Part shown: positions 35,602-64,000 of the stretch, piece after piece
Position numbering within the stretch: position 1 is the first letter of the stretch
Layout: each line of letters starts with the position of its first letter
Source: Escherichia coli
Lineage (GTDB): Bacteria; Pseudomonadota; Gammaproteobacteria; Enterobacterales; Enterobacteriaceae
Assembly: GCF_003018115.1 (NCBI RefSeq)
Contig: NZ_CP027457.1
DNA length: 64,000 bases
Direction: 5' to 3' (one strand)
Program-made: the position numbers and the translations under genes
The notes under the pieces: generated by a model
The model's database searches: none
What the model was told of the DNA's origin: nothing
The model's input: the letters and a program-made list of their open reading frames with translations, nothing else

Positions 35602-36039
35602 TCATCGAAGGCATTGCGTCCTGATGTATTCCTGCAGGTAGTTAACCTGCGCGGTTATCCTGTCGATTCCACTTCGGAGACGGTAATAATTGAGTTCAGC
35701 ATCTGCTGTAAGTCTTGGGCTTTCTCCATCGCCCATGCTGCTGGCTCCGGTCGTTGACTTTGCACAGGTGGCGGAGACTTGCAGGCGCTTACGACCAACA
35801 GAAACATCAGCACGGAGACTTTCGATAGTCGCGTTAGCATCAGCAAGCTCCTTTGTGTATCTGGCGTCGAGTTCTGCTACATCACGTTGACGCTTCTGCA
35901 TATCAGCGATGATGGATGTGGCTTTGTCGCGCTGGTCTTTATAGGCGATGGCGTTATCACGGTAATGATTAACAGCCCATGACAGGCAGACGATGATGCA
36001 GATAACCAGAGAGGAGATAATCGCGGTTACTCTGCTCAT
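35602..36039 (-). CDS. Rz: Spanin inner-membrane subunit Rz (lambda-type)
   Basis: Translation [34 protein letters not shown]... nearly identical to lambda Rz N-terminus. Confidence 0.9.
35655..35846 (-). CDS. Rz1: Spanin outer-membrane lipoprotein subunit Rz1, embedded in Rz in another frame
   Basis: Embedded ORF with lipobox VVSAC and proline-rich segment; start approximate. Confidence 0.7.
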
Positions 36040-36512
36040 ACCTCAATCTCTCTGACCGTTCCACCTGCTTCTTTGAATTTTGCAATCAGGCTGTCTGCCT
36101 TATGCTCGAACTGACCATAACCAGCCCCCGGCAGTGAAGCCCAGATATTGCTGCAACGGTAGATAGCCTGACGAATATCGCCGCGATCAATCATCGGTAA
36201 AGCGCCACGCTCTTTAATCTGCTGCAGCGCAACAGCATCCTGGCTTTTCGGAGAGAAGTCTTTCAGGCCAAGCTGCTTACGGTAGGCATCCCACCAACGG
36301 GAAAGAAGCTGGTAACGTCCAGCGGCTGTTGATTTGAGTTTGGGGTTTAGCGTGACAAGTTTGCGAGGGTGATCGGAGTAATCAGTGAATAGCTCTCCGC
36401 CAACAATGACGTCATAACCATGATTTCTGGTTTTCTGACGTCCGTTATCAGTTCCCTCTGACCACGCCAGCATATCGAGGAACGCCTTACGTTGATTATT
36501 GATTTCCACCAT
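36036..36512 (-). CDS. R: Endolysin R (lytic transglycosylase, lambda-type)
   Basis: 158-aa translation [49 protein letters not shown]... matches lambda R. Confidence 0.95.
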
Positions 36513-36819
36513 CTTCTACTCCGGCTTTTTTAGCAGCGAAGCGTTTGATAAGCGAACCAATCGAGTCAGTACCGATGTAGCCGATGAACACGCTCGTTAT
36601 ATAAGCGAGATTGCTACTTAGTCCGGCGAAGTCGAGAAGGTCACGAATGAACCAGGCGATAATGGCGCACATCGTTGCGTCGATTACTGTTTTTGTAAAC
36701 GCACCGCCATTATATCTGCCGCGAAGGTACGCCATTGCAAACGCAAGGATTGCCCCGATGCCTTGTTCCTTTGCCGCTAGAATGGCGGCTAACAGGTCAT
36801 GTTTTTCTGGCATCTTCAT
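36496..36819 (-). CDS. S: Holin/antiholin S (lambda-type, dual start)
   Basis: 107-aa translation [41 protein letters not shown]... matches lambda S. Confidence 0.95.
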
Positions 36820-37215
36820 GTCTTACCCCCAATAAGGGGATTTGCTCTATTTAATTAGGAATAAGGTCGATTACTGATAGAACAAATCCTGGCTACTGTG
36901 TTTAGTAATCAGATTTGTTCGTGACCGATATGCACGGGCAAAACGGCAGGAGGTTGTTAGCGCAGCCTCTTGCCACCCGCTTTCACGAAGGTCATGTGTA
37001 GAAGGCCGCAGCGTAACTATCACTAATGAATTCAGGACAGCCAGTGGCTACGGCTCAGTTTGGGTTGTGCTGTTGCTGGGCGGCGATGACGCCTGTACGC
37101 ATTTGGTGATCCGGTTCTGCTTCCGGTATTCGCTTAATTCAGCACAACGGAAAGAGCACTGACTAACCAGGCTCGCCGACTCTTCACGATTATCGACTCA
37201 ATGCTCTTACCTGCT

Positions 37216-37418
37216 GTGCAGATATAAAAAATCCCGAAACCGTTATGCAGGCTCTAACTATTACCTGCGAACTGTTTCGGGATTGCATTTTGCAGACCTC
37301 TCAGCCTGCGATGGTTGGAGTTCCAGACGATACGTCGAAGTGACCAACTAGGCGGAATCGGTAGTAAGCGTCGCCTCTTTTTATCTCACTACCACAACGA
37401 GCGAATTAACCCATCGTT
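37216..37418 (-). ncRNA. Lambda-type 6S RNA (pR' leader transcript ending at tR')
   Basis: Region collinear with the lambda pR'-tR' leader; tR' hairpin and T-tract at about 37216-37245; boundaries approximate. Confidence 0.6.
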
Positions 37419-37424
37419 GGGTCA

Positions 37425-37453
37425 AATTTACCCAACTTTATTCAATAAGTCAA
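37425..37453 (-). promoter_or_regulatory. Late promoter pR' with overlapping qut site
   Basis: Minus-strand -35 TTGACT (37448-37453), 17-bp spacer, -10 TAAATT (37425-37430); matches lambda pR'. Confidence 0.8.
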
Positions 37454-37495
37454 TATTATGCCGTTAATATGTTGCCATCCGTGGCAATCATGCTG

Positions 37496-38119
37496 CTAAC
37501 GTGTGACCGCGTTAAAAATGTTGTCTGCGATTGACTCTTCCTTGTGGCATTGCACCACCAGAGCGTCATACAGCGGCTTAACAGTGCGTGACCAGGTGGG
37601 TTGGGTAAGGTTTGGGATTAGCATCGTCACAGCGCGATATGCGGCGCTTGCTGGCATCCTTGAATAACCGACGCCTTTGCATCTTCCGCACTCTTTCTCG
37701 ACAACTCTCCCCCACTGCTCTGTTTTTGCTATATCAACCGCACGGCCTGTACCGTGGCAATCTCTGCATCTTGCGCCCGGCGTCGCGGCACTACGGCAAT
37801 AATCCGCATAAGCGAATGTTGCGAGCACTTGCAGCACCTTTGCCTTAGTATTTCCTTCAAGCTTTGCCACACCACGGTATTTCCCCGATACCTTGTGTGC
37901 AAATTGCATCAGATAGTTGATAGCCTTTTGTTTGTCGTTCTGGCTGAGTTCGTGCTTACCACAGAATGCAGCCATGCCGAATCCGGCTTGTGATTGCGCC
38001 ATCCCCATAGCAGCCATCACATCAGTACCGGAAAGAGAGTCAGAAGCCGTGGCCCGTGGTGAGTCGCTCATCATCGGGCTTTTTGGCGAATGAAATTTAG
38101 CTACGCTTTCGAGTCTCAT
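37496..38119 (-). CDS. Q: Late gene antiterminator Q (lambda-type)
   Basis: 207-aa translation MRLESVAKFHSPKSPMMSDSPRATASDSLSGTDVMAAMGMAQSQAGF... matches lambda Q. Confidence 0.95.
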   Translation of the reverse strand: MRLESVAKFHSPKSPMMSDSPRATASDSLSGTDVMAAMGMAQSQAGFGMAAFCGKHELSQNDKQKAINYLMQFAHKVSGKYRGVAKLEGNTKAKVLQVLATFAYADYCRSAATPGARCRDCHGTGRAVDIAKTEQWGRVVEKECGRCKGVGYSRMPASAAYRAVTMLIPNLTQPTWSRTVKPLYDALVVQCHKEESIADNIFNAVTR

Positions 38120-38304
38120 GGTCTTCCCCTCTTGCCCTGTTTGACCATCAGGACGCCGTTAACTATTACGTGACGCTCGCCTTTGCTGTCTCGGTTGTAC
38201 TTGAGCACTGTTCCTCTTGCGCAGGAAAGCATCCTCGCCACTTCGGTCTGATTGCCTCGTGTCTGGATAAGAAGCTCTGGTATCGTTTGAATTGTGGCGT
38301 TCAT
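38116..38304 (-). CDS. ninH: NinH-like protein
   Basis: 62-aa translation with ...YGNQTEVARMLSCARGTV... resembling lambda NinH. Confidence 0.7.
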   Translation of the reverse strand: MNATIQTIPELLIQTRGNQTEVARMLSCARGTVLKYNRDSKGERHVIVNGVLMVKQGKRGRP

Positions 38305-38663
38305 ACGTTCTCCAGTTCGGTGATTTTTATTCCAAGCCTTCCGCCTGGTACTTTCACACCACGAATTACGCGAATGTCATCGAATTGCTCGTCGTCTTCC
38401 GCAAATCCGGCGTGGATAAGGGAGTCGAGTAAACCCTTCAGGATGTTATCGAGGTCGCGGCGGCGGGAGTCTGGAACGTCTGCGATGACTTTGATGCGGA
38501 GTCGTGATTTGGTGAAAATATCTAACTTGAGTTGGCGGATGATTTGCTGAACGTCTTTTCGGTATTTCTGGCCTTTATCGCTGATGTAGTATTGGCTTCC
38601 CCGTCTTCGCCAGTAGGTATTCACCGACGGCGGGTATGGAAGCACAAACCGATATTCATTCAT
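38301..38663 (-). CDS. rusA: Holliday junction resolvase RusA-like
   Basis: 120 aa; motifs LPYPPSVN...DVPDSRRRDLDN... typical of RusA. Confidence 0.8.
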   Translation of the reverse strand: MNEYRFVLPYPPSVNTYWRRRGSQYYISDKGQKYRKDVQQIIRQLKLDIFTKSRLRIKVIADVPDSRRRDLDNILKGLLDSLIHAGFAEDDEQFDDIRVIRGVKVPGGRLGIKITELENV

Positions 38664-38950
38664 GACTTAACCTTCCCCTCCTTCAGCAATACCGCCTGCG
38701 TCCTGATCACGCCTTCGAGGTGGTAAAGTCTGGCGTCTTTGTTGTCGAGGTTATGGGTGCGTCGGTCGATTTCATCGTGACACGCGCTACAAGCCCATGC
38801 GCCGATCAGGTCGTCAGGCTTCATTCCCGTTCCGCAAATTCCAGCCATCCGGTAATGTGCCAGAACTGTAGTTTCAGGATTGCCATTGCATACGCCGTAA
38901 ATACGTACCTGGCATTCTCTGCCGCGTGCTTCTTTGCGTAGGTTAGCCAT
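38660..38950 (-). CDS. Cysteine-rich nin-region protein (DUF1364-like)
   Basis: 96 aa with paired Cys/His motifs; nin-region context. Confidence 0.5.
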   Translation of the reverse strand: MANLRKEARGRECQVRIYGVCNGNPETTVLAHYRMAGICGTGMKPDDLIGAWACSACHDEIDRRTHNLDNKDARLYHLEGVIRTQAVLLKEGKVKS

Positions 38951-39219
38951 TATGGTTCACTCCAGTAATTCTCAATTGCAGCAGCCATTCTCTGCATCCA
39001 CTCAGCCAGCTTTAACGCGGCTTCTCTTTCAGAACCACATTTAGGGAAATCCTTCATTTCCATGCTGGCCTTATATGTTCTGAATGCCAGGTCTCCGGTA
39101 ATAACCAGCTCCTGATCAAGCACCGAGCGTTTATTCCGGTGTTGAACGTAATAGACAGATTCAGTCCGCATTTCTTCTCTGTCTTTTTTGAAGGAAATAA
39201 GCTCAGAGAAATCACTCAT
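38950..39219 (-). CDS. Hypothetical nin-region protein
   Basis: 89-aa ORF, translationally coupled to neighbours. Confidence 0.4.
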   Translation of the reverse strand: MSDFSELISFKKDREEMRTESVYYVQHRNKRSVLDQELVITGDLAFRTYKASMEMKDFPKCGSEREAALKLAEWMQRMAAAIENYWSEP

Positions 39220-39387
39220 CGTCTTCTTCCTCGTACATTGAGCTATTCGGATCGCTCATCAGTTCTGCGCAGCAGTGCTCACATACGTGAACTTCCAGCA
39301 CATGCAGCTTCTGACCGCAGTTAGCGCACGTTAAAGCCCGCTCGACGCTTTCTTTCTGGTATTGAAGGGATTGGGATGGGCTAAGCA

Positions 39388-39753
39388 TTATTGGATTCTC
39401 TGCATCATGAGAAAGACAATCATGGCGGCGCGGAGGGGATTTTCATGTATAACTCGCTTAGATTTACAGTAGGCCACACCGCGTGCACCCCACTCGTCTT
39501 CATCGAGATTGATAATGCTAATCCTGTATTTTTCAATAATCGGCCATGCGTCTGCTGGGTTTGCGCATGGGTTAAAGGATCCGCGCTCAACTTCTACTTC
39601 AACTGCGTCTCCGTTTACAATGTCTCCCTCAAATGAGACAAACACCATATCGCCATTCTCACCTTCTTTGTAATCCGGTGATCCGTTATGAATGGCTTCG
39701 AATACCGCCACGTTAATTTCAAAATCACTTAACTGTGAATAATCCATTGTCAT
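39388..39753 (-). CDS. Hypothetical acidic nin-region protein
   Basis: About 121-aa ORF; start approximate. Confidence 0.4.
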
Positions 39754-39926
39754 TTCCTCGCACGATGTCTTAGCCACCGGATATCCCACAGGTGAGCCGT
39801 GTAGTTGAAGGTTTTTACGTCAGATTCTTTTGGGATTGGCTTGCGTTTATTTCTGGAGCGTTTCGTTGGAAGGTATTTGCAGTTTTCGCAGATGATGTCG
39901 GTGATACTTCGTCGCTGTCGTCTCAT
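39750..39926 (-). CDS. ninE: NinE-like protein
   Basis: Translation [58 protein letters not shown] matches lambda NinE. Confidence 0.8.
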
Positions 39927-40333
39927 TCGTACCTCCTGTCGGTAAATCTGACACCCTGACCAATAGCCCACGCTGTTGTGTACTCAATCAGACTTGCCAT
40001 ACGCTTTACACTCATCTGCGCGCTGCTTTCGCGGATGTTGACGTATTCGCCTTCAAGCCCGGGCAAAACATCAGCTTCCTGCTTTGTTGCCACTGCATGA
40101 CCGCTGATCAACAAAACCTTCCATTGTTCTGGTTTTAACCATTTATCGCGCCACTGAACTTGCCTGGCGATATCTGCGACCATCGCGTGAAATTTTGCGT
40201 TCTGGTCAAGATTTCGCTTGTAGTCAGTAATGCGGATGGTGACTGGCTTGTCTTTATCGAGTGGTGTTGCGAGGATGGCATTTATTGCGGCTTGCTGTTG
40301 TTGCTTAGTTCGGAGGAAGATTGTTTGCTTCAC
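39923..40333 (-). CDS. ninB: NinB (Orf) recombination mediator-like protein
   Basis: 136 aa; ...[27 protein letters not shown]... resembles lambda NinB. Confidence 0.75.
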
Positions 40334-40344
40334 TGAATACTCCT

Positions 40345-40536
40345 TTATTTTTTATGCCTGTAACCCCATTCTTCCAGCAACCTTGCGGCGTACCACCCAA
40401 GAAACAAAGGAAAGAACATTACAATGAGATATTCCCCGCCACGGTCAATGTTCGAAATTGACCAGATTACGATGTAACCAGTGCAGGACAGGAATATTAC
40501 AAACCCCAAAAAGCTACTTCGTCGACTCATGCTCAC
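40345..40536 (-). CDS. Hypothetical small membrane protein
   Basis: 63-aa ORF with two hydrophobic helices. Confidence 0.35.
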   Translation of the reverse strand: MSMSRRSSFLGFVIFLSCTGYIVIWSISNIDRGGEYLIVMFFPLFLGWYAARLLEEWGYRHKK

Positions 40537-40853
40537 TCCTTCACTTTGATTCCAGCAGCGCGGATGTTTTCCTCATAAGCATCCATTGCATCACCGAAGC
40601 CATTGGAATAATCAACAGTAAACCCTTTGGCTAAGGCTTCTCTGCTGTCGATAAACTTTGGCGCGGTTATTTCAATAGCTGCTCGCGATGCCTGCCACGT
40701 TTGCCAGTGGCCTTGAACATCGTCCATCACGTATTGACCACCAATATTACCGCTGCCAATTTCATGGTGATTTTCAGGGTAACGGATAAGGTCTGAAGAT
40801 TCGCCCCCACGTCGTAACCAACTCTCTTCAAACTGCTTTCTTGATTCGTCCAT
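40533..40853 (-). CDS. Hypothetical protein
   Basis: 106-aa ORF in the operon between helicase and nin genes. Confidence 0.4.
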   Translation of the reverse strand: MDESRKQFEESWLRRGGESSDLIRYPENHHEIGSGNIGGQYVMDDVQGHWQTWQASRAAIEITAPKFIDSREALAKGFTVDYSNGFGDAMDAYEENIRAAGIKVKE

Positions 40854-40870
40854 CGATACTTATCCTCAGT

Positions 40871-41077
40871 TCAACTCACAAAACGCCACGCCATTTTTGC
40901 AACAGCGACAGGCGCAACACCGATAATCACCCACATGAGAGTGCTACCGAAAAGCACACCCACCATGTCTTTACCTTCACCTACCAACCGGATAAAACTG
41001 CTGGCAATCACAATGAACGTCACCACCATCCACGACGCACCGAGAAGCCTCAATGCAGAGAAAATTAACTCAGCCAC
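40871..41077 (-). CDS. Hypothetical small membrane protein
   Basis: 68-aa ORF with two hydrophobic helices. Confidence 0.35.
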   Translation of the reverse strand: MAELIFSALRLLGASWMVVTFIVIASSFIRLVGEGKDMVGVLFGSTLMWVIIGVAPVAVAKMAWRFVS

Positions 41078-41149
41078 GATTTACTCTCCCCCAAATAAAA
41101 AGGCCTGCGATTACCAGCAGGCCTGTTACAAGCTCAGTGATGTAGATGG

Positions 41150-42526
41150 TCATACGTCAGCCCCTTGTGCATATCGTCTGCCACGCGCAGCAGGTGCATT
41201 TGATGCTGTGCAAATCTGTCTGGCTTCATCCTGGTCACATGCAACAAAGTGTCCGTTACAGAACCGCTGGTAAACCGTACCAAGCGAGCCAAAACGGTTT
41301 TTCGTCACAATGATTTCAGCAAATGGTGCGGCGCTACTGTTCTCGTCATATACCGCTTCCCGATAGAGCATGATGATTGAGTCTGCGTCCTGCTCAATGC
41401 TTCCTGAATCACGCAAATCTGCGTTTGTCGGGCGTTTGTTTGGTCGCTTCTCAACATCGCGCGAAAGCTGACTCAGGGAGATAACAGGCGTTTTCAGGTC
41501 TTTCGCCATCGCCTTCAGGCTTCCGGAGATGTGAGCAATTGCAAGGTCGTTGCGGTCTGCTTTCGGCTTCTCAATCAGGCCAAGATAATCCGCCATGATG
41601 AGTGACAGGTTTGGATTTTCCTGTTTGTGCCGTTCTGCGATTGAGCGTATTTCTTCGACCGATAAACGCGAGGCATCGACTACCCATACATCCAAATCTG
41701 CGAGCTGACTCATGCCGTTAGCAACACGCGCCCAGCCTTCGTCATCCATCGATGCAGGATTTCGCAGTACGCTAACCGACATCCTCCCGGCGTTGGCAAT
41801 GCTTCGCTCTGCAATCTGCAATGCGCTCATTTCCATTGAGAAAATCAATACCCCGCGCCGGACGTCAGAACCAGGAATAACGCGGCTTGCAACGCCTTCG
41901 GCAATCTTCAGCGCCAGTTCGGTTTTCCCCATACCAGGACGAGCGGCGATAATCACCAGGTCTTCCGCGTTCATCCCTCCGGTGATAGCGTCAAGTTCTT
42001 CGATTCCGGTCTTCAGGGTATCTGACTCTTCTCCGTTCCTCAGACGCCTGTCAAGCGTGTCAGTGTAGTCGGTGATGATTTCCCCTAACCGTACCGGTTT
42101 AACCTCGTCACGGGGCTTTCTGATGGCTGAAAGACGCTTTACAAGCTCATCCATCGCCTGACTAGATGCGTCGATGGTTCCGCTCTGAATTGGTTCACGC
42201 ATTTCGTCCATGATTTCCAGCACCAGACGGCGGTGATAGTTATCCGCGACCATTCCGGCATATCCCTTCAGGTTTGCGGCACTCGGGCAGTTTTTGCTGG
42301 TCATCAGGATTGACGTGAAATGCTCCTCTCCGCACGCCTCGGCAACCATCAGCGCGTCGATTAGGTTTCTGTTTCGCGCCTGCTTGCGGATAACCTCGAA
42401 GGCTTTCCGGTAGAGCGGAATTGAAAACGCTTCCGGCTCAAGCGTTGCCAGAACGTCACTGGCGGTTGGAGTTAATCCACCAATCAGCAGGCCACCGATA
42501 ACGCTCGCTTCGATATCCTGTCTCAT
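41150..42526 (-). CDS. Replicative DNA helicase, DnaB-type (P22 gene 12-like)
   Basis: 458 aa with Walker A GMGKTE and DnaB C-terminal motifs. Confidence 0.9.
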
Positions 42527-43344
42527 GCAATCCCCCTGTCTGCAAACTTCCCTTCCCGAACTCCCGTTAACGAGTCTTCCCTCAGCAGGTAATCAAAATC
42601 AGCCGTCCAGCCCGTGTCGTTGTCTCCGAAGTAAAACGGCTTGGCCTGATGCACAAACGCCCTGACATACGCTCTGAAACCGTCCACATTTGGCGTTTTC
42701 AGTTGCGGGATGATTTTCTTCAGGCGGCGTTTGCGTTTCTCGTTGACCGCAACAGCGTGTGGCAGTCTGTCACCGACTTCGGTGTTGTAGGCGTTCAGGA
42801 AGGATTCGTAGTCGATTCGTTCTGCCTTGCGACGTTCAGGTTTAACCTGCCCATCGCCACCCCCGTTAGGGGGTAAGGGGGTATTTGTATTTATTGTCTT
42901 TTGTATATTGTCTTTTGTGTTTAGCTGACTTGGCTTATACCCATTAGCCGACTTGGCTAATGTTTTATTAGCTGTTTTAGCTAATGTTAAGCTGTCATGG
43001 CTAATCCACTGAGAAACCACCTTGTTCACTCCGATTTTCACGCCATCAGCAATGAGGAATTTACGCTCGATAAGCTGGCGCTTGGCAGCGCAAACATGAG
43101 TGTGATGAATACCTGTCATGGCTGCTATCTGCGTGTTTGTGAGTCGATCCATCGGCTTATTGAATCCGTATGTCTTGCGCATGATAGCGAGCATCACCTT
43201 CATCTGCCGGACGGTTAAATCAGCCATCAGCAGACTGTCGGTAATCTCGTTAGCAACGCGCATGAAACCATCTTCGGTATCTGCCACGCGATGCTCCACG
43301 ACCTCCAGTTGAGGCCTGTAATCAGCTAACTTAACGACGCCCAT
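42523..43344 (-). CDS. Replication initiation protein with lambda O-like N-terminal domain (P22 gene 18-like)
   Basis: ...[36 protein letters not shown]... resembles the lambda O N-terminus; iterons inside the gene. Confidence 0.85.
42875..43000. repeat. ori: Replication origin: iterons and AT-rich tract inside the O-like gene
   Basis: Direct repeats TTAGCTGACTTGGCTTA / TTAGCCGACTTGGCTAA / TTAGCTGTTTTAGCTAA / TTAAGCTGTCATGGCTAA adjacent to an AT-rich stretch. Confidence 0.7.
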
Positions 43345-43526
43345 GTTTCACTCCTGCTTTGGCTAGTCTGTAAACACCAACAAGGCGCTCTGCGAACGCC
43401 CTGTTATTTGCTGCGGCTACCACTAATCCCTCAGGTGAATCAGGGTGTCGAATCTCTTCTTTTTCCTGGTATTTCTTACGACGTTTTGTCATAATTACTC
43501 CTGTGGATTGATCCAGTCTTTCTACA

Positions 43527-43802
43527 TCAGGCCTCGAAGAATTCGCCGTTCTTCGGGGCTTTTTCTTTTGTCAGCATTCTGGCTACTTTCTTAGCCAGTT
43601 CCGCCAACTCCTCGTCTTCAACACCCCATTCAAGAACAGCCAGAAGCATTCCCATTTTTGGGATGAAGCTGTCTTTCCATCGCGAAATTTGCGATTCATT
43701 AATTCCTAACGCGTCGGCAACCTTTCGCTGGCCACGTACAGCAATTCGATTCAGGATGTTGCTTGTAATTGCATTCGCTTTCTTGCGAGTACTTGTAAGT
43801 TC
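43527..43802 (-). CDS. cII: CII-like transcriptional activator
   Basis: ...GINESQISRWKDSFIPKMGMLLAVLEWGVEDEELAELAKKVARMLT... resembles lambda CII; start approximate. Confidence 0.8.
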   Translation of the reverse strand, partial: ELTSTRKKANAITSNILNRIAVRGQRKVADALGINESQISRWKDSFIPKMGMLLAVLEWGVEDEELAELAKKVARMLTKEKAPKNGEFFEA

Positions 43803-43862
43803 CATATGTAAGTATTTCCTTAACAAATAAGAAGTTATGCGCATCAACTTATGCGCGTTGTA

Positions 43863-43908
43863 TTCCCGCATTTCGGCGGGAATGAGGACCATGACTGTTA
43901 AAGAGCGG
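43863..43908 (-). promoter_or_regulatory. nutR (boxA CGCTCTTTAACA, boxB TTCCCGCCGAAATGCGGGAA)
   Basis: boxA/boxB pair just downstream of cro on the transcribed strand; same boxB as the nutL candidate. Confidence 0.6.
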
Positions 43909-43913
43909 TGTTA

Positions 43914-44108
43914 CTATTTGTTTTTCTTGTTGCTTGGGAAAGGACGAACTTCCTCTCCAATCACACTGCCATCAGGCTTTACCGTAACCATGATGTTACG
44001 GCCTGCCAGAATGGCCTTGCTGATAGCGCACTGGATTACACCAAAGTCACTGGCTGCTTTAGCCTGTCCATGGATTTTGGCGTAATCGGCAAGTGTCATT
44101 CGAATCAT
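43914..44108 (-). CDS. cro: Cro repressor
   Basis: Translation [62 protein letters not shown] resembles lambda Cro; GGAG RBS. Confidence 0.85.
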
Positions 44109-44139
44109 ATGCACTCTCCGTTATTAACCATGAACAAAG

Positions 44140-44203
44140 AATACTACAGGTATTCAAAGCAATCAATACTCAGGGTATTTTTAGTTTAAGTACCTTAGCT
44201 ATT
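44140..44203. promoter_or_regulatory. Right operator OR1-OR3 with divergent promoters pR/pRM
   Basis: 15-bp palindromes AATACTACAGGTATT (44140-44154), AATACTCAGGGTATT (44165-44179) and weaker AGTACCTTAGCTATT (44189-44203); pR -35 TTGATT / -10 TATTCT on the minus strand. Confidence 0.65.
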
Positions 44204-44214
44204 AGAATTAAGCT

Positions 44215-44931
44215 ATGGAAAATAAAAAATCACTGACGACAGAACAGCTCGAAGACGCTAAGCGGCTTAAGGCTTTGTATGAGTCAAAAAAGAAAGAATT
44301 GGGAATAACCCAATACTCAATCGCTGATGAACTGGGTATCACCCAAGGAGCGGTAGGGCATTATCTTAATGGCAGAAACGCGCTAAACGTTGAGGTCGCA
44401 TCTGGTTTTGCACGTTTGTTGCAAGTCTCAATTGCTGATTTTAGCCAGTCAATTGCTGCCAAGGTTGCAGAACAGGCAGAAAGCCTTAAGAGCGATGCCA
44501 ACGTAAGGTATGCAGGGGAATACAGAGCAGGAAAGAGGTATCCGGTGTTAAGCAGTATCCAGGCTGGCTCGTGGTGTGAAGCATGCGAACCATACACCAT
44601 TAAAGACATAGATGTTTGGCTTGAGTCTGACGCGCATATTCAAGGTAATGCGTTCTGGCTTAAAGTGGAAGGTGATTCAATGACGGCACCGGTTGGGTTA
44701 AGCATTCCAGAGGGAACATTCGTTCTTTTCGATACCGGAAGGGAGGCGATCAACGGCAGCTTGGTCATAGCAAAACTTTCTGACTCTAACGAAGCAACAT
44801 TCAAGAAGCTGATAATCGACGGCGGAAATAAATACCTCAAGGGACTTAATCCTGCATGGCCTCTCGTGCCAATCAATGGAAACTGCAAGATTATAGGCGT
44901 TGCAATTGAGACAAAACTAAGGCTGGTTTGA
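44215..44931 (+). CDS. cI: CI repressor (HTH plus LexA-like S24 autocleavage domain)
   Basis: 238 aa; ...LTTEQLEDAKRLKALYESKKKELGITQYSIADELG... and C-terminal ...AFWLKVEGDSMTAP... resemble lambda CI. Confidence 0.9.
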   Translation: MENKKSLTTEQLEDAKRLKALYESKKKELGITQYSIADELGITQGAVGHYLNGRNALNVEVASGFARLLQVSIADFSQSIAAKVAEQAESLKSDANVRYAGEYRAGKRYPVLSSIQAGSWCEACEPYTIKDIDVWLESDAHIQGNAFWLKVEGDSMTAPVGLSIPEGTFVLFDTGREAINGSLVIAKLSDSNEATFKKLIIDGGNKYLKGLNPAWPLVPINGNCKIIGVAIETKLRLV

Positions 44932-44945
44932 TCACGCAAGGGGCG

Positions 44946-45317
44946 ATTATGGTTGGAACCGCTATAGCAAGCTTTTTTGGGATGTTGGCAATCTCGACAA
45001 TTTACGGCTTAGCGCATGCTTTTATTGCGAAATCTCTATCAGAAAAAATAAGCCAGGCTTGGGCGCATAGATCAGCTCGTTTCATGATTCTGGTGATCAT
45101 AGCAATACAAGGGATATCTGCATTTATCCTCTATGGATCAAGCTTATACCTATTGTATCAAGGCGCGACATTTACGCCTTACACCAGTGATTACGGAACT
45201 CTATACGATGGTAGTGAAGACATCACTGTGGCTTGGATCGTCTTTGGTTTATCTATGGCCGTGTCTGTTGTAGCAGACATCATTAAGGTAATTCTCGTCT
45301 TAACCTTCGCTGACTAA
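44946..45317 (+). CDS. Small multi-pass membrane protein in the cI operon (rexAB position); function unknown
   Basis: About 123-aa ORF with 3-4 predicted TM helices beginning just after the cI stop; precedes OL/pL. Confidence 0.55.
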   Translation: MMVGTAIASFFGMLAISTIYGLAHAFIAKSLSEKISQAWAHRSARFMILVIIAIQGISAFILYGSSLYLLYQGATFTPYTSDYGTLYDGSEDITVAWIVFGLSMAVSVVADIIKVILVLTFAD

Positions 45318-54202: not shown

Positions 54203-55486
54203 GTGAACACATTTTCAGTTTCCCGTCTGGCGCTGGCATTGGCTTTTGGCGTGACGCTGACCGCCTGTAGCTCAACACCACCCGATCAACGTCCTTCTGA
54301 TCAAACTGCGCCTGGTACCTCTTCTCGCCCGATTCTGTCGGCAAAAGAAGCGCAGAATTTCGATGCTCAACACTATTATGCATCCCTGACACCAGGTGCT
54401 GCAGCGTGGAATCCGTCCCCGATAACCCTGCCTGCGCAACCTGACTTTGTTGTCGGCCCGGCGGGTACTCAAGGTGTAACGCATACCACGATTCAGGCGG
54501 CGGTAGATGCGGCAATTATCAAGCGCACCAACAAGCGCCAGTATATTGCCGTGATGCCTGGTGAGTATCAGGGAACGGTGTATGTCCCTGCTGCTCCAGG
54601 TGGAATTACTCTGTACGGTACAGGTGAAAAACCGATTGATGTGAAGATTGGGCTTTCCCTTGATGGGGGCATGAGCCCTGCCGACTGGCGTCACGACGTC
54701 AACCCGCGCGGCAAATATATGCCAGGTAAACCAGCGTGGTATATGTACGATAGCTGCCAGCGCAAACGCAGCGACAGTATCGGTGTTCTGTGTTCTGCGG
54801 TCTTCTGGTCACAAAACAATGGCCTGCAACTGCAAAATCTGACCATCGAAAACACGCTGGGCGATAGCGTAGATGCAGGTAACCATCCGGCGGTGGCACT
54901 GCGTACTGACGGTGACCAGGTACAGATTAACAACGTTAACATTCTCGGTCGTCAGAACACCTTCTTTGTCACCAACAGCGGTGTGCAGAACCGTCTGGAA
55001 ACGAATCGTCAGCCGCGTACGCTGGTGACCAACAGCTACATTGAAGGGGATGTGGATATCGTTTCTGGTCGCGGCGCAGTGGTGTTCGATAACACCGAAT
55101 TCCGCGTGGTGAACTCACGTACTCAGCAAGAAGCGTATGTGTTTGCACCGGCTACGCTGTCCAACATCTATTACGGTTTCCTCGCCGTAAACAGCCGTTT
55201 CAATGCTTCCGGTGATGGCGTGGCGCAACTGGGCCGCTCGCTGGATGTTGATGCCAATACCAACGGTCAGGTGGTGATCCGTGATAGCGCCATCAACGAA
55301 GGTTTTAACACGGTTAAACCGTGGGGCGATGCGGTGATCTCTAATCGTCCGTTTGCGGGTAATACCGGCAGCGTTGACGATAGCGACGAAATACAGCGCA
55401 ATCTGAATGACACTAACTACAACCGCATGTGGGAATACAATAACCGCGGCGTGGGTAGCAAAGTGGTTGCAGAGGCGAAGAAGTAA
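54203..55486 (+). CDS. ybhC: Pectinesterase-like outer membrane lipoprotein YbhC
   Basis: 427 aa; signal peptide plus lipobox LTAC; right-handed beta-helix-like repeats. Confidence 0.85.
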   Translation: MNTFSVSRLALALAFGVTLTACSSTPPDQRPSDQTAPGTSSRPILSAKEAQNFDAQHYYASLTPGAAAWNPSPITLPAQPDFVVGPAGTQGVTHTTIQAAVDAAIIKRTNKRQYIAVMPGEYQGTVYVPAAPGGITLYGTGEKPIDVKIGLSLDGGMSPADWRHDVNPRGKYMPGKPAWYMYDSCQRKRSDSIGVLCSAVFWSQNNGLQLQNLTIENTLGDSVDAGNHPAVALRTDGDQVQINNVNILGRQNTFFVTNSGVQNRLETNRQPRTLVTNSYIEGDVDIVSGRGAVVFDNTEFRVVNSRTQQEAYVFAPATLSNIYYGFLAVNSRFNASGDGVAQLGRSLDVDANTNGQVVIRDSAINEGFNTVKPWGDAVISNRPFAGNTGSVDDSDEIQRNLNDTNYNRMWEYNNRGVGSKVVAEAKK

Positions 55487-55499
55487 GAGCTATTAACTA

Positions 55500-55620
<121 letters not shown>

Positions 55621-55626
55621 CGCTTT

Positions 55627-57888
55627 TTACATCTGACGGTTTTTATTGAAGTTAATCAAACTACCCGCCTTGATAATCTCGCGCTCTTCAGCAGTCAGAC
55701 TTTCCATATAGAGCGTAATTTCCGTTACCGGCGCATCTTCATGGATCACATAACCTTTAAACGTCGTACCCGGATTATCCAGCGCCGCTTTAATGCCAGG
55801 GATGTAAATGTAATCCCCCACTTCAAAGGTTGGCACTTCCGCCATTTGCAGCGGTAACATCCCCCAGTTGATGACGTTAGAACGATAGCGTTTAGTCGCG
55901 TACTCCTCGGCAATATTCGCCAGACCGCCAATCACACGCTGGCAGCTCGCCGCCTGTTCACGCGCAGAACCATCGCCTGGTTTCACCGCATAGACCATGC
56001 TGCCAATTTCAGTTTGCAGCGGATCAATATGCTCCTGACCAGCAATCTGCTTAATGCGCGCAAACACCTCTGTCAGCTCGCTGACATTCCCCGCCAGACG
56101 CTGATTTTCCAGCTCAGCAGTCGCTTTACTTCTGCCAACATAACCGGGATCGCGGCGAGACAGGGTAAACTCCGCCAGACCAATCGGATTTGAACGATAA
56201 GAAGAGGTTTCACCGGAAGGGATCAGTTCGTCGGTGGTGGTCACTTCGTCGAGGATCTTCGAGCACACTTTGAGGACGATATTGTCAGTCAGCGCACCTA
56301 ATTCCGGCCAGTCTTTAATGTTCGGTCCGTAAATCAGCGGTTGCTGAGTTGCCCCTTTCACAAAGCCCTGATAAACACGGTTTTTATACGGCGTTACATC
56401 GAAGGCGTACTCCGGCACGTTGTCCCAGCAATCGAGTTCGCTGGCAGAAGTTAAATAGCCACCGTTTCCCGCAGTCGCAGCGATAGAACGAGCGTCCATC
56501 AACGCCACCGCTGACATCTGCCCATTAGCTGGCTTAGAGCCTTCGCGGTTCGGGAAGTTACGCGTGGTGTGGCGAATACTTAAACCGTTGTTGATTGGCG
56601 TATCGCCCGCGCCAAAGCATGGGCCGCAGAACGCGGTTCTGATGATTGCGCCTGCGCCAATCAAATCTGCTACCACACCTTTTTTGGCGAGATCCATAAA
56701 CACCGGCTGTGATGACGGGTAAACCGCCAGCGAGAAGGTGTCATTGCCACAGGATTGACCGCGCAGTGCATTCGCCGCCGCGATGACGTTTTCGTAGTTA
56801 CCGCCAGAACAGCCCGCGATAATCCCCTGCTGCACTTTCAGGCGACCATTTTCCACTTTATCCAGCAGCGAGAGTTTGGCTTTACCGTGCGCCACGCGCT
56901 CGGACTCAATTTCAATCTCACGTAGAATGTCGGTCAGGTTCTGGTTCAGCGTGTCGATTTCATACACGTTGCTCGGGTGGAACGGCAGCGCAATCATTGG
57001 TTTGATGGCGCTTAAATCAACGCTGATGCAGCCATCGTAGTACGCCATCGGTTGAGGGTTAAGCTGGCAGTAATCCTGGCCGCGACCGTGCAGCGCCAGC
57101 CAGTTATGCACTTCTTCATCGGTTTGCCAGACAGAACTTAAACAGGTCGTTTCAGTGGTCATAACGTCAACACTGTTACGGAAATCGGTAGAGAGCGCAG
57201 CAATACCGGGACCTACGAATTCCATCACTTTGTTTTTGACGTAGCCGTTTTTGAACACGGCACCGATGATAGCCAGCGCCACATCCTGCGGCCCCACATA
57301 CGGCGCTGGTTTTCCGGTCAGATGCACCGCAACAACTCCCGGATAGTCGATATCCCAGGTGTCATTAAGCAATTGTTTTACCAACTCGCCGCCGCCCTCA
57401 CCGACTGCCATTGTCCCTAATGCACCGTAACGGGTGTGACTGTCTGACCCGAGGATCATTTTGCCGCCACCTGCCATCATCTCACGCATATATTGATGGA
57501 TGACCGCAATATGCGGAGGCACAAAAATACCGCCATAACGCTGAGCCGCCGATAAACCAAAAACATGGTCATCACCGTTAATGGTGCCGCCGACGGCGCA
57601 AAGTGAGTTATGGCAGTTGGTCAGCACATACGGCAGCGGGAAACGTTCCATACCGGACGCTTTAGCGGTCTGTACTATACCAACAAAGGTAATATCGTGA
57701 GAGGCTAATGAATCAAACTTAATTTTAAGTTTATCCATATTTCCGGACGTATTATGAGAAGAGAGAATAGACCAGGCAATAGTGCCTTTTTTGGCTTCTT
57801 CTTTTTTAATTTCGCCGGTGAAATGTTCTTCGGCAATTATTTCGTTATTACTGGCGAGAAACACGCCTTTTTCAGATAACTTGATCAT
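55627..57888 (-). CDS. ybhJ: Aconitase-family hydratase YbhJ
   Basis: About 753 aa, aconitase-like; position between ybhI and ybhC. Confidence 0.8.
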
Positions 57889-58070
57889 TAAATGCTCCAG
57901 ATATCTGCGCACCGTGAAGTGCGCAAAAAGATAATAAATGGATATACTCTAAATAATTCGAGTTGCAGGAAGGCGACAAGCGAGTGAATCCCCAGGAGCT
58001 TACATAAGTAAGTGACTGGGGTGAGCGAACGCAGACTCAGCACATGCAACTTGAAGTATGACGAGTATAT

Positions 58071-59504
58071 TTACAGCATGTTCCAGCCGATCAGCATATT
58101 CCACCACCACACTCCGAGGGTGATATGCACCAGGAAGGTTAATATCGTCAGTACCGCACCGACCAACCACCAGGATTTAATATCGTTATAACCCACGCCA
58201 AAGATGACCGGACCTGCCGCGCCGCCATAGTGAGTAACCATGCCGCCATAGGAGTTGGAGAACAACAGTGCCAGCGCGGTTAACATTAACGGTGCGCCGG
58301 AGACGTTCGCCAGCATGGCAAATACCGGTAACATAGCAACGATATAGGCACTACCGGAAGCGAAGAAATAACGCACGATGATGCTGAGGAAAATAATAAC
58401 GAAGAAAGCAACGTTACCGTGACCATCAAATGCCAGGTTATTTTTAAAGACTTCAGCTAACCATTCGAAAAATTTAACTTTCGATAATAAGGAGCTTAAG
58501 CCGATAATACCGCCGTACCAGATTAAGGTATTCCAGCCGCCTTTATTTTTAACCACGTCTTCCCAGGTAACGATACCCAGCAGCAGCATAGTCGCCATAA
58601 CAACGATTGCCACGGTGGATTCATCAACCCCCAGAGACTTACTGAAAATCCAGCCCAGCAGCGCCAGCACAAAGACACCGAGCAGCATTTTTTCGCGGAT
58701 TTTCATCGGTCCCAGTTCGGCAAGGCCCGCTTTAGCGATGGTTTTGTTATCCACCTTCTTAATTTCTGGTGGATACATGGTGTAAATCACCAGCGGGGTG
58801 ACCAGCAGCATAATGATGCCCGGCAATCCGGCGGCCAGCGCCCATCCACCCCAGCTAATTTGCAGGTGCAGAATGTCGTTGATCATTTTCAGCGCCAGAA
58901 TGTTCCCCGCCATTGCGGTAAAGAACATATAGCTGGTGGTTTTGGTGACCATGTAAATGGACATCATCAGGTAATGTCCGACACGACGCGGACTTTTTTC
59001 CGGTTCGGACCCCAAAGCCACCGCCACGCTGTTGATGATCGGTAACACAATGCCGCCCGCACGCGCGGTGTTAGACGGTGTTGCCGGAGCCAGTACCAGA
59101 TCGAGGAATACCGTAACGTAACCCAGACCCAGCGTGGTGTTACCGATTTTACCAATCAGCAGATAGGCAATACGTTTACCTAAACCGGTGGTCACAAATG
59201 CGGCGCTTAAGGTAAACGCCGAGAACACCAGCCAGGTAGTACCTGAAGAGTAACCGCTTAATACGGCGGTGGTTTTAAACGCACCGTCGGATAAGTTACC
59301 GACCACCACCATGGAGGCAGCAACGGCAATTAACAGTACGACAGGTTCCGGGAAAGGCTTGATAACCAGCCCCACAATGGCCGCCAGGTAAATACCAAAA
59401 AGCACCCACGCCAGTTCGCTTAATCCTGCCGGAGCTGGCATAAAGCCAATAATACATGGGATCGCTAATATGAGAATTAGCTTCCATAACGATTTCTTAT
59501 TCAT
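58071..59504 (-). CDS. ybhI: DASS-family anion:sodium symporter YbhI
   Basis: 477-aa polytopic membrane protein. Confidence 0.8.
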   Translation of the reverse strand: MNKKSLWKLILILAIPCIIGFMPAPAGLSELAWVLFGIYLAAIVGLVIKPFPEPVVLLIAVAASMVVVGNLSDGAFKTTAVLSGYSSGTTWLVFSAFTLSAAFVTTGLGKRIAYLLIGKIGNTTLGLGYVTVFLDLVLAPATPSNTARAGGIVLPIINSVAVALGSEPEKSPRRVGHYLMMSIYMVTKTTSYMFFTAMAGNILALKMINDILHLQISWGGWALAAGLPGIIMLLVTPLVIYTMYPPEIKKVDNKTIAKAGLAELGPMKIREKMLLGVFVLALLGWIFSKSLGVDESTVAIVVMATMLLLGIVTWEDVVKNKGGWNTLIWYGGIIGLSSLLSKVKFFEWLAEVFKNNLAFDGHGNVAFFVIIFLSIIVRYFFASGSAYIVAMLPVFAMLANVSGAPLMLTALALLFSNSYGGMVTHYGGAAGPVIFGVGYNDIKSWWLVGAVLTILTFLVHITLGVWWWNMLIGWNML

Positions 59505-59579
59505 TTAAAATCCTGTTCTTTCTGTATGACTCATACAGAAGTCCTTTATTGATTGTCCTTATCCTGACAACGAATCTTT

Positions 59580-60632
59580 TCAGGGAAGATAAACTTCACC
59601 GGAAAATATTTTTCTGGTCGTCCGAATAACAGATGCGCGTAACGTCGTGGCATCCTGACCTTCATTAGTTAAATGAACGTCGAGCGCACCACTGGGGTGT
59701 TCAATATTGATATTGCCATATCCTACAGAAGGGATGATTTGTCGGGTGACGGTGCCTTCCAATGCACAACTACTGGAAATAGCAATAGCACCGGTTATCG
59801 CCAACGCGCGATGGCAAGAATGCGGCATAAAATAACGCACATTAATTGCCCCGCCTTTCTGCGCTGGAGAAATAAGCACAGGTTTAGGGATAACCATATT
59901 ACTGACATCACCTAAGCCCATTGCTTTACCCGCTTGTAGACGGATAGATTCAATGCGGGCTAATAATGCTTTGTCGGCATCCAGTTCCGCCGGTAATTCA
60001 TAGCCTGTTTTTCCCAGATATTCAGCCGGAATAATGACGACTGGCATCGCCATATCGATACAGGTCACCGGGACATCGTCAAAATAATCAATCTGATTAT
60101 CAGTCGGGAAAACTTTTCCGGTTTTGGTTCCAGCGGCATTCAGGAAAGTGAGCGCAACCGGTGCGGCAGTACCCGGTACGCCGTCAATTCTGGCGCTACC
60201 CTCGTACTCGACAACACCATTTGGCGTTTGCACATCAGCTTCGATGAACGTACCCGTATTGACGTTGCGGATACGTACACGGGTAACTGGCGAAGTCGCT
60301 GCAATCAAACCATTTTCAATGGCGAATGCGCCAACGCCAGACAGCATATTGCCGCAGTTAGGCGTGGTATCGACACGTTGCTCATGGACGATAACTTGAG
60401 CAAACAGATAATCAACATCAGCACGCGGATCGCTGGAACGGCTAATAATGGCGACTTTACTAGTCAGCGGATTACCGCCGCCAATACCGTCAATTTCCAG
60501 ATCGTTACCGGAACCCATAATTGCCATCAATATTTTATCGCGCTGCGTTTGATCTTCGGGTAAATGTTCCGCTAACAGGAACGCGCCCCTCGAGGTTCCA
60601 CCTCGCATCATCACGCAGGGTATTTTTTTCAT
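59580..60632 (-). CDS. ybhH: PrpF/AcnD-accessory family isomerase YbhH
   Basis: 350-aa translation MKKIPCVMMRGGTSRGAFLLAEHLPEDQTQRDKILMAIMGSGN... Confidence 0.8.
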   Translation of the reverse strand: MKKIPCVMMRGGTSRGAFLLAEHLPEDQTQRDKILMAIMGSGNDLEIDGIGGGNPLTSKVAIISRSSDPRADVDYLFAQVIVHEQRVDTTPNCGNMLSGVGAFAIENGLIAATSPVTRVRIRNVNTGTFIEADVQTPNGVVEYEGSARIDGVPGTAAPVALTFLNAAGTKTGKVFPTDNQIDYFDDVPVTCIDMAMPVVIIPAEYLGKTGYELPAELDADKALLARIESIRLQAGKAMGLGDVSNMVIPKPVLISPAQKGGAINVRYFMPHSCHRALAITGAIAISSSCALEGTVTRQIIPSVGYGNINIEHPSGALDVHLTNEGQDATTLRASVIRTTRKIFSGEVYLP

Positions 60633-60815
60633 AATAATGCCCTCAATTTAAAAACATAACTTATTGCGATATGGTTACATTAAGGACAAAGCATCTCTAA
60701 TGACTTTAGCTCAACGATTAATAACATTTTTTCATTAATTTAAGTTGGCTAAATGCAGTTAAAATTTTTAACGACCAGCCACCCAAAATCGTCGCTTCCA
60801 TTTTCCGGAGTAATA

Positions 60816-61769: not shown

Positions 61770-61809
61770 TACACCGGCGCAGGAGAGACTGCGCCGGGTA
61801 AATCAGCGG

Positions 61810-62841
<1,032 letters not shown>

Positions 62842-62959
62842 CTAAAATTAGTCGCTTTTGGCGGTGAATGCTGAATTAAAACGCAGAATTTTGTCCGATA
62901 GTGGTATCGGTGTACCATTCGCGCAGACGAAAATTCTTAACCTTAATCTGGAATACGCC

Positions 62960-63778: not shown

Positions 63779-64000
63779 TCAGGCGGTTATCGACACACTT
63801 TTAATTTGCGCGTACAGCCACAGGCCAGGTTTGATCGCCAGTTCATCCCTGGCCCACGGGCTGATACGCGCCCACAGCGTTTTACCGCCGACTTCCAGTT
63901 CCACTTCCACCTGGCCGTTGTCGTCATAACTATTAACAACTTTTGCCCGCAATACGTTACGAATGCTGGTTTGCTGCGGCGGTTGTAAAACCAGAGAAAC
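63779..64000 (-). CDS. modC: Molybdate ABC transporter ATPase ModC, C-terminal fragment (gene continues beyond the window)
   Basis: Hand-translated minus-strand C-terminus ...[13 protein letters not shown] followed by a stop at 63779-63781. Confidence 0.65.

Follow-up and report, generated by a model that had tools for sequence, protein, structure and literature searches.

The interval between the DnaB-type helicase gene and rusA in the window (the 64,000-nt stretch of the E. coli contig NZ_CP027457.1 that was analyzed) is crowded with small ORFs, which raises the question of what they are and, in particular, whether two short membrane proteins encoded among them are host-takeover or exclusion factors, as the earlier note had considered. 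All of the ORFs described in that note were found in place on the minus strand. The gene order of the block was orf68, orf106, orf61, NinB, NinE, NinX, NinF, orf89 and YbcO-like, followed by RusA, NinH and Q, which is the last gene of the early-right operon (Table 1); a lambda-S-like holin and an endolysin are located at 36819-36036. The full map runs from an O-like gene through the DnaB helicase, tR2 and the small ORFs to RusA, NinH and Q.

Table 1. Features of the nin block and its flanks in the window
Feature	Coordinates	Strand	Basis and remarks
nin block	38660-41077	-	nine end-to-end ORFs, ~99% coding
NinA-like 27-aa hydrophobic mini-ORF	41070..41153	-	translation; HK620 equivalent annotated ninA
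tR2-type intrinsic terminator	41101..41124	-	terminator scan; directly after helicase gene, opens nin block
orf68, 68 aa	40871..41077	-	GTG start; phrog_1165, populated family, no assigned function
orf106, 106 aa, acidic, soluble (predicted)	40533..40853	-	phrog_343, populated family; precomputed Pfam PF26207
orf61, 61 aa	40345..40530	-	ATG at 40530; AAGGAG 5 nt before ATG
NinB/Orf recombination mediator	39923..40333	-	PF05772, E 4.6e-53; phrog_72
NinE, 58 aa, very basic, pI 11.2	39750..39926	-	PF05322, E 7e-44
NinX (DUF2591), 121 aa, acidic	39388..39753	-	PF10765, E 4e-19; phrog_444
NinF, 58 aa	39212..39388	-	PF05810, E 1.8e-12; phrog_672
orf89, 89 aa	38950..39219	-	phrog_1258, populated family
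YbcO/DUF1364-like, 96 aa	38660..38950	-	PF07102, E 3.2e-44, 149.3 bits (cutoff 29.9)
RusA Holliday-junction resolvase	38301..38663	-	PF05866, E 1.1e-16; phrog_34; downstream boundary of block
NinH	38116..38304	-	NinH annotation in 97%-identical phages; weak Fis-like match
Q-type late antiterminator	37496..38119	-	homologous-region annotation in mEp235 and vB_EcoP-611R6

Published accounts describe the nin genes as non-essential and closely packed, with ATGA motifs, and put the pool that supplies them at 30-50 genes (PMC5630979, PMC8022706, PMC10695390). The block displayed the features of a lambdoid nin region, lying between the replication genes and Q downstream of tR2 and consisting of packed, overlapping small genes. 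The interval is thus very probably the nin region of a P22-like or lambdoid prophage in the E. coli chromosome, made up of small non-essential genes of the distal PR operon. Dispensability for plaque formation and N-independence upon deletion are documented in the literature for lambda and Sf6 only (PMC10695390, PMC5630979).

Non-coding gaps within the block amounted to 17 nt and 11 nt only. The stop/start overlap ATGA, a form of packing described for nin regions in PMC8022706, joined helicase/ninA, ninB/ninE, ninE/ninX and ybcO/rusA, while TAATG joined ninX/ninF and orf89/ybcO, and a ATGAGTGA overlap linked ninF to orf89. The nine block ORFs carried Shine-Dalgarno sites or ATGA/TAATG overlaps, from which, read directly off the sequence, translation would be expected to proceed along the chain. 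Eight of the nine matched family HMMs (Pfam, PHROGs), and purifying selection in frame was detected for orf68, orf106 and orf61.

The placement of the nin region between the helicase gene and rusA in the earlier note was borne out, as was its recognition of NinB (PF05772) and NinE (PF05322), whose HMM bit scores of 178.9 and 148 compare with gathering cutoffs of 23.8 and 25. That several of the remaining ORFs have no assignable function held for orf68, orf106, orf61 and orf89. It did not hold for the 121-aa and 96-aa proteins, since the former matched NinX (PF10765; 69.4 bits, cutoff 22.6) and the latter matched YbcO/DUF1364 (PF07102) as well as PDB 3G27. The 58-aa NinF (47.3 bits, cutoff 27.5), which displays a zinc-ribbon-like CxxC...CxxCC pattern and an acidic tail, was omitted from that note.

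The YbcO-like protein aligned with 3G27 over residues 1-95 (E 3.7e-40), and residues C13, C21, H32, C39, C54, C57 and H58, comprising the treble-clef cysteines and the beta-hairpin histidine, were identical. YbcO/DUF1364 has been classed as a His-Me finger nuclease fold with predicted nuclease activity (PMC4999995, PMC5714182), the role of the conserved histidine being taken from PMC4999995. The 96-aa protein is accordingly predicted to be a treble-clef zinc finger protein and His-Me finger nuclease. Together with the NinB/Orf mediator and the RusA resolvase, it would form a recombination and repair set. The rest of the content would comprise the named families NinE, NinX, NinF and NinH and the unnamed modules orf68, orf106, orf61 and orf89, and the block as a whole may be viewed as a mosaic assembled from the lambdoid nin gene pool.

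Searches of orf68, orf106 and orf89 against Pfam, NCBIfam, PHROGs and PADLOC returned only PHROGs labelled as of unknown function, and literature searches on these three and on orf61 found nothing. Both orf106 and orf89 appear to be genuine soluble proteins. The former has a mosaic structure within the gene, its two ends being conserved and its middle variable, and its dN/dS was 0.41 in frame versus 1.5 and 2.5 off-frame. Its AF2 model reached a pLDDT of only 70.5, and Foldseek with this model gave no meaningful fold match. The orf89 family (43 sequences) shares the conserved motif DFP...EAALKLADWL.RL, and the AF2 model (pLDDT 96.5) consisted of four antiparallel beta-strands followed by one long C-terminal helix. 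A search of the orf89 profile against the PDB returned nothing, and no informative structural relative was found for this confident predicted fold. Sequence searches of orf106, orf89 and NinX against the PDB likewise found no relatives.

The description of two small double-helix membrane proteins agreed with hydropathy, which gave two hydrophobic segments each in orf68 and orf61. Topology was assigned by Kyte-Doolittle hydropathy and the positive-inside rule. The product of orf68 (GRAVY 1.37) had 19-residue windows of up to 2.16 and exceeding 1.6 in both halves, and is likely a two-TM inner-membrane hairpin with N-in/C-in topology. Its GTG is preceded by GGGGGAGAG 6 nt upstream. The second TM segment and tail (WVIIGV.PV.VAKMAWRFVS) were almost invariant, while substitutions in TM1 replaced one hydrophobic residue by another. 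A homologue diverged by 44% retained the 68-codon ORF, with differences by codon position of 31/17/41 and a pN/pS of 0.49 in frame versus 0.78 and 1.37 off-frame; pooled dN/dS among close relatives was only 0.50. Stx2a-converting and HK022/HK620-type phages commonly carry the gene, which was left unannotated in several phage records (HK022, HK620 and many Stx2a phages). A profile search of the orf68 family against the PDB found no relatives.

The orf61 product had a Kyte-Doolittle maximum of 2.08, with hydrophobic segments at about residues 7-25 and 34-50, the second being short (~17 residues), and basic termini (RR... and ...RHKK). It is predicted to be a two-helix inner-membrane hairpin, also N-in/C-in. 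The program-made ORF list gives this gene as a 63-aa version starting at GTG. As an ORFan of narrow range, it occurs in enterobacterial prophages only, has no family match in Pfam, NCBIfam, PHROGs or PADLOC, and adjoined an orf106-family gene in all loci sampled. Comparison with a 72%-identical homologue yielded a dN/dS of 0.19 in frame versus 0.83 and 1.60 off-frame. Near-identical copies offered 15 variable sites and a pooled dN/dS of 0.84, so that this one diverged pair carries the coding evidence for orf61. For both membrane ORFs, diverged homologues thus gave in-frame values of ~0.2-0.5 versus ~0.8-1.6 off-frame. A paralogous relationship between the two was rejected (hhalign probability 0.6%), and they appear to be genuine, unrelated genes.

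The tR2 terminator is composed of an 8-bp GC-rich stem and then UUUUUAUUU, and the hairpin RNA folded at -16 kcal/mol. An identical sequence in phage HK620 is annotated as 'terminator tR2'. The hairpin is enclosed by the NinA-like ORF, whose ATG overlaps the helicase stop (ATGA) and whose TGA overlaps the orf68 GTG. This ORF lies outside the interval covered by the earlier note and was absent from it. The HK620 record calls the equivalent 84-nt ORF ninA, 'similar to P22 NinA', and the 27-aa ninA/tR2 element was conserved in 386 phage records, lambda included. Conservation of the hairpin could account entirely for that of the ORF, so that its translation is putative. An identification of orf68 itself as NinA was rejected: in HK620, the ORF over tR2 merely abuts an unannotated orf68 homologue, and the window holds its own copy of the NinA-like ORF upstream of orf68.

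Since transcription would have to pass the conserved tR2 directly after the helicase gene to enter the nin block, the nin genes would be dependent on phage antitermination and made only as delayed-early products during lytic growth, as homology to lambda and HK620 suggests. A single promoter-like site was found in 37400-41400, at the PR' position downstream of Q, against 5.0 expected by chance in 37400-41400; the stretch 38100-41400 contained none in this consensus scan, which is weak evidence. With a terminator immediately before the block and no promoter-like site within it, expression of orf68 and orf61 in the lysogen is unlikely. A moron would carry its own promoter and terminator, whereas these two genes follow a terminator and are translationally coupled to their neighbours. 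The block should therefore be expressed as a delayed-early lytic unit and not as a lysogen-expressed moron.

Most likely, orf68 and orf61 encode small accessory inner-membrane proteins that would act in lytic development by binding a membrane protein of the host or phage and modulating it, and we favour such lytic modulators over exclusion factors expressed in the lysogen. A role in host takeover or exclusion was not supported. None of the searches linked any block ORF to defence, exclusion, holin or toxin families, and the PADLOC-DB HMMs gave 0 matches for all 10 proteins at E <= 0.01. A type I toxin of the Hok/TisB type did not fit either, with no Rfam match at E <= 0.1 in 36000-45000, no toxin family and a co-directional operon. 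One or both proteins might nevertheless act in superinfection exclusion, keeping the DNA of other phages from entering as T4 Imm does, or in anti-defence, by counteracting abortive infection of the membrane-based kind in the way that lambda Ren acts against Rex. The conserved two-TM architecture of both, their location in the variable slot that follows directly on the replication genes and holds ren in lambda, and the frequency of orf68 in Stx2a-converting and HK022/HK620-type phages are consistent with this. We consider it unlikely, given the lack of PADLOC matches and of similarity to named families and the improbable expression in the lysogen; moreover, a position shared with ren is not homology. 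It is similarly doubtful that either or both are unrecognised delayed-early inner-membrane effectors targeting a host membrane protein. If they were, they might shut out superinfecting phages while the lytic cycle is under way or, as a counterpart of Ren, disarm an abortive-infection system acting at the membrane, and diversifying selection on a surface that binds a partner or target could explain the hypervariable middle of orf106.

The size of 61-68 aa and the two TM segments resemble class II holins and would suit a holin, antiholin or pinholin-like protein that works with the S-type holin to set the time of lysis. Such a function is highly improbable, since the genes lie in the early operon ~4 kb upstream of a lysis cassette that already supplies a holin and an endolysin, orf68 ends in AKMAWRFVS without a charged C-terminal tail, and no holin family was matched in Pfam or PHROGs. 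It is also quite improbable, if slightly less so, that the small hydrophobic ORFs are chance reading frames, not genes, within spacer or 'boundary' DNA that does not code and is conserved for the sake of recombination or termination. The missing annotation of orf68 in HK022, HK620 and many Stx2a phage records would fit such an origin, as would the very low diversity of orf61 and its lack of a PHROG or Pfam family, and the hairpin explanation available for the neighbouring ninA ORF. Against it, lengths of 68 and 61 codons were strictly kept across 25-44% nucleotide divergence, third codon positions carried an excess of changes, and dN/dS fell below 1 only in the annotated frame; both ORFs also have good Shine-Dalgarno sites and conserved charged loop and terminal residues. 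Accessory membrane modulators of lytic development remain the preferred reading.

The region is an ordinary, already catalogued nin block, and every block protein is present in public databases in identical or nearly identical form, often on hundreds to thousands of contigs. Apart from annotation hygiene, for which it counts that orf68 is a conserved gene missing from several reference phage annotations, the region is of little consequence. As well-defined genes that are cheap to test, orf61, orf68, orf89 and orf106 lend themselves to functional screening of the accessory genes that lambdoid phages carry, Shiga-toxin phages among them, and orf89 is of modest value for its very confident predicted fold without an informative structural relative.

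The gene order (replication genes, tR2, small ORFs, ninB, ninE, (ninX), ninF, orf89 homologue, ybcO-like, rusA, ninH, Q) is shared with vB_EcoP-611R6 (ON470589), mEp235 (NC_019708), HK620, HK022, HK97 and Salmonella P22-like phages. Over most of the interval, DNA identity to known phages and E. coli prophages was 96-98%, and the ATGA/TAATG coupling was shared as well. The exact combination of modules differed from that of all these phages, and the modules between tR2 and ninB were independently present or absent. No phage record covered at least 80% of the interval in a single piece, and only 8 of 5,426 complete E. coli genomes did so; this rarity is ordinary lambdoid mosaicism.

The YbcO protein of the DLP12 prophage in E. 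coli K-12 (PDB 3G27; His-Me finger group 7) aligned end to end with the 96-aa protein and also neighbours rusA (PMC5714182), while ~30% of the residues differed. Lambda ren and the ninA of P22 and HK620 occupy the same slot as the small ORFs of the window, between the replication genes and ninB and around tR2. However, ren is located upstream of tR2, whereas orf68, orf106 and orf61 are located downstream of it and are not homologous to NinA. T4 Imm, class II holins and HK97 gp15 are small phage inner-membrane proteins with two predicted TM helices. The orf68 and orf61 products match them in size class and in the number of predicted TM helices, but share no sequence similarity with any named family and are encoded at a different genomic location. 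Their predicted expression is also delayed-early rather than lysogenic or late.

The interval at 38660-41077 on the minus strand, between the DnaB-type helicase gene and rusA, was filled by nine co-directional ORFs and contained only 28 non-coding nucleotides, as found from the ORF list and inspection of the sequence. Four unnamed ORFs are designated orf68, orf106, orf61 and orf89 according to their length in amino acids. The ORF list and the sequence agreed on the presence of all ORFs named in the earlier note, including the acidic 121-aa protein (pI 4.4 from composition) and the Cys/His-rich 96-aa protein (5 Cys and 4 His), but the 58-aa ORF had been overlooked. The mechanically called 63-aa version of orf61 with a GTG start is probably overlong by two codons.

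Features in and around the nin block, with start context and family assignment
Feature	Position	Strand	Context	Family
DnaB-type helicase gene	42526-41150	minus	flanks interval upstream	
NinA-like 27-aa hydrophobic ORF	41153-41070	minus	encloses tR2 hairpin	
Intrinsic terminator (tR2)	41124-41101	minus	directly after helicase stop; 8-bp GC stem and U-run	
orf68	41077-40871	minus	GTG start, GGGGGAGAG 6 nt upstream	phrog_1165, unknown function label
orf106	40853-40533	minus	GAGGA 9 nt upstream	phrog_343, unknown function label
orf61	40530-40345	minus	ATG start, AAGGAG 5 nt upstream	
NinB	40333-39923	minus	GTG start, AAGGAG 7 nt upstream	PF05772, E 5e-53
NinE	39926-39750	minus	start overlaps ninB, ATGA	PF05322, E 7e-44
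121-aa ORF (NinX)	39753-39388	minus	start overlaps ninE, ATGA	PF10765, E 4e-19
58-aa ORF (NinF)	39388-39212	minus	TAATG overlap	PF05810, E 2e-12
orf89	39219-38950	minus	ATGAGTGA overlap	phrog_1258, unknown function label
96-aa ORF (YbcO-like, DUF1364)	38950-38660	minus	TAATG overlap upstream; ATGA overlap with rusA	PF07102, E 3e-44
rusA	38663-38301	minus	flanks interval downstream	
Sole sigma-70-like site	37425-37453	minus	PR' position after Q	

Two of the proteins previously regarded as unassignable, NinX and the YbcO-like protein, thus belong to families. The YbcO-like protein aligned over its full length with the crystal structure of DLP12 YbcO (3G27, E 4e-40), and the core Cys and His residues were all identical. 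DUF1364 has been classed within the treble-clef/His-Me finger nuclease superfamily, and its genes typically neighbor rusA and Q (PMC4999995, PMC5714182). Together with RusA, NinB and the YbcO-like predicted nuclease make up a set of recombination/repair proteins. For orf61, a family match was found in none of the libraries scanned, and NCBIfam and PADLOC scans of the proteins of the interval gave no further assignments. The exact protein sequences of all but NinX were already public, mostly labelled "hypothetical protein", and some were found on about 1000 contigs of Escherichia, Shigella and Salmonella. One of 43 members of the orf89 family matched the Pfam Rv2179c-like 3'-5' exoribonuclease (E 2.9e-13). 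This member, which we guess to be P0346 (143 aa, with an N-terminal extension), may be the product of a gene fusion, or its start may have been called wrongly so that a neighboring gene was joined to it.

The two tiny membrane proteins proposed earlier correspond to orf68 and orf61, each of which displayed two hydrophobic stretches that exceeded the Kyte-Doolittle transmembrane threshold in common use (GRAVY of orf68, 1.37); a short charged loop lay between the two stretches (RLVGEGKD in orf68, NIDRGGE in orf61). Since basic residues lie close to both termini of the two proteins, the positive-inside rule would suggest an N-in/C-in hairpin. They are not relatives of each other (hhalign probability 0.6%). 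Clustered at 90% identity, the orf68 family comprised at least 182 groups, every one of 68 aa and only from Escherichia or Salmonella. It was detected in 162 IMG/VR loci. Of 50,697 phage records, 107 contained it, among them 48 Stx2a-converting phages, HK022, HK620, HK75 and mEp235; in these records it was frequently unannotated. Homologues without an annotated feature were located in HK022 (NC_002166, 33101-33298), HK620 (AF335538, 12378-12581) and many LC616xxx Stx2a phages; orf68 is therefore a small gene overlooked in well-known phage reference records.

Among close relatives, the pooled dN/dS of orf68 was 0.50 in frame versus 0.66 and 0.98 off-frame. Substitutions in TM1 replaced hydrophobic residues by hydrophobic ones, while residues 49-68 were nearly invariant. 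A homologue from a Salmonella phage differed at 89 of 204 nt (31/17/41 by codon position); the 68-codon ORF was still unbroken, and pN/pS was 0.49 in frame versus 0.78 and 1.37 off-frame. By comparison, orf61 is a narrow ORFan with 4 protein clusters, 56 IMG/VR loci (≥95% identity) and 4 phage records, and its near-identical copies, with 15 variable sites in all, were uninformative. A single 72%-identical homologue, directly following a DnaB helicase gene on a metagenomic contig, kept the charged residues and the FFPLFLGW core and gave a dN/dS of 0.19 in frame versus 0.83 and 1.60 off-frame. Therefore, on these sequence comparisons, orf68 and orf61 appear to act as protein-coding genes under purifying selection.

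At the left boundary, the ATG of the NinA-like ORF overlaps the helicase TGA (ATGA) and its own TGA overlaps the GTG of orf68. The annotated tR2 of HK620 is identical in sequence to the terminator found here, and the equivalent 27-aa mini-ORF was named ninA by the annotators of HK620 and 933W. The HK620 "ninA" label under the orf68 match belongs to this mini-ORF, so orf68 is not ninA. The ninA/tR2 element recurred in 386 phage records, lambda and 933W among them, and was at least 95% conserved in most. The NinA-like ORF may be translated as a third tiny membrane peptide or may be a mere ORF across a conserved terminator.

Between tR2 and ninB, orf68, orf106 and orf61 were independently present or absent among 130 related viral loci, and in many of them orf68 directly adjoined ninB with an 11-nt gap. 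Intragenic mosaicism marks the orf106 gene: the N-terminus (M-D/E-ESRKQFE), a W..WQASRAAIEI core and the C-terminus (IRAAGIKVKE) are conserved, the middle is hypervariable, and alternative C-terminal segments exist. The last codons of orf106 (GTG AAG GAG TGA) at the same time provide its downstream neighbor with a Shine-Dalgarno site. A total of 433 homologues were returned with the precomputed Pfam tag PF26207; homologues such as P0003 had no match at E ≤ 10 in a Pfam-A copy without the PF26207 model. The AF2 model of orf106 was mediocre (pLDDT 70.5), and a fold search with it gave no match. In all 54 viral loci with orf61, this gene lay beside an orf106-family gene, in either order or between two copies; the 72%-identical orf61 homologue had no orf106-like gene after it within the 135 nt of available sequence. 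The linkage may indicate a functional pair, but may equally reflect recombination-driven insertion at the conserved orf106 ends or simply the fact that the copies sampled share a recent ancestor.

Downstream of tR2 the small co-directional genes form a translationally coupled chain. A promoter scan found no sigma-70-like site inside the nin block and a single one in 37400-41400, versus 5.0 expected by chance. This site falls between Q and the holin gene (36819-37496), in a gap of ~680 nt for which PR' and a qut site are annotated in mEp235; neither tRNA genes nor Rfam matches were found in the gap. A TTGAGA-N15-CATAAT sequence at the orf89/ybcO junction (38949-38975, minus), missed by the scan owing to its 15-nt spacer, is the counterpart of the mEp235 "promoter similar to consensus". 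Since its -10 box runs into the ybcO ATG, this sequence could serve as a promoter for no more than the genes further downstream, for example rusA. By analogy with lambda and HK620 and from the literature, transcription of the block would depend on phage antitermination and occur only when the PR transcript is extended in the delayed-early phase. On the same grounds, the block would be non-essential for plaque formation and would have been put together from a pool of 30-50 nin genes, through both illegitimate and homologous recombination.

The most economical reading, held with low confidence, is that orf68 and orf61 encode small accessory inner-membrane proteins, whose partner during lytic growth would be a membrane protein of the host or of the phage. 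The suggestion in the earlier note that they are exclusion or host-takeover factors is improbable; no result backs it, and an exclusion function expressed in the lysogen would sit badly with the expression programme predicted here. Other candidates each lack a defining feature. A holin is not expected in an early operon, and no holin family matched in Pfam or PHROGs; type I toxins are argued against by the absence of Rfam matches in 36000-45000 and of toxin family hits in Pfam and NCBIfam; and a moron would be expected to have a promoter of its own, where the consensus scan showed no promoter-like site and a terminator directly upstream. It is also rather unlikely that orf68 or orf61 stands for a so far undescribed class of delayed-early membrane effector that may block injection or serve as a functional counterpart of Ren.

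The block is part of a P22-like/lambdoid prophage in the E. coli chromosome. The right flank (55000-64000) carries ybhJ, ybhI, ybhH, pgl and ybhD and was 100% identical to several complete E. coli genomes such as those of O169:H41 strains; therefore, the prophage adjoins the pgl/ybh region. Downstream of rusA follow NinH, the Q antiterminator and a lambda-type holin/endolysin cassette. The nearest phages for the early and lysis regions were HZ41, vB_EcoP-611R6 (a Lederbergvirus), IME10 and Gally, with ~96% identity in mosaic pieces. Lambdoid nin regions have been known since the 1980s. The interval is an already known kind of system, a lambdoid nin region, and known phage and E. coli records were 96-100% identical to its sequences with the same gene order.
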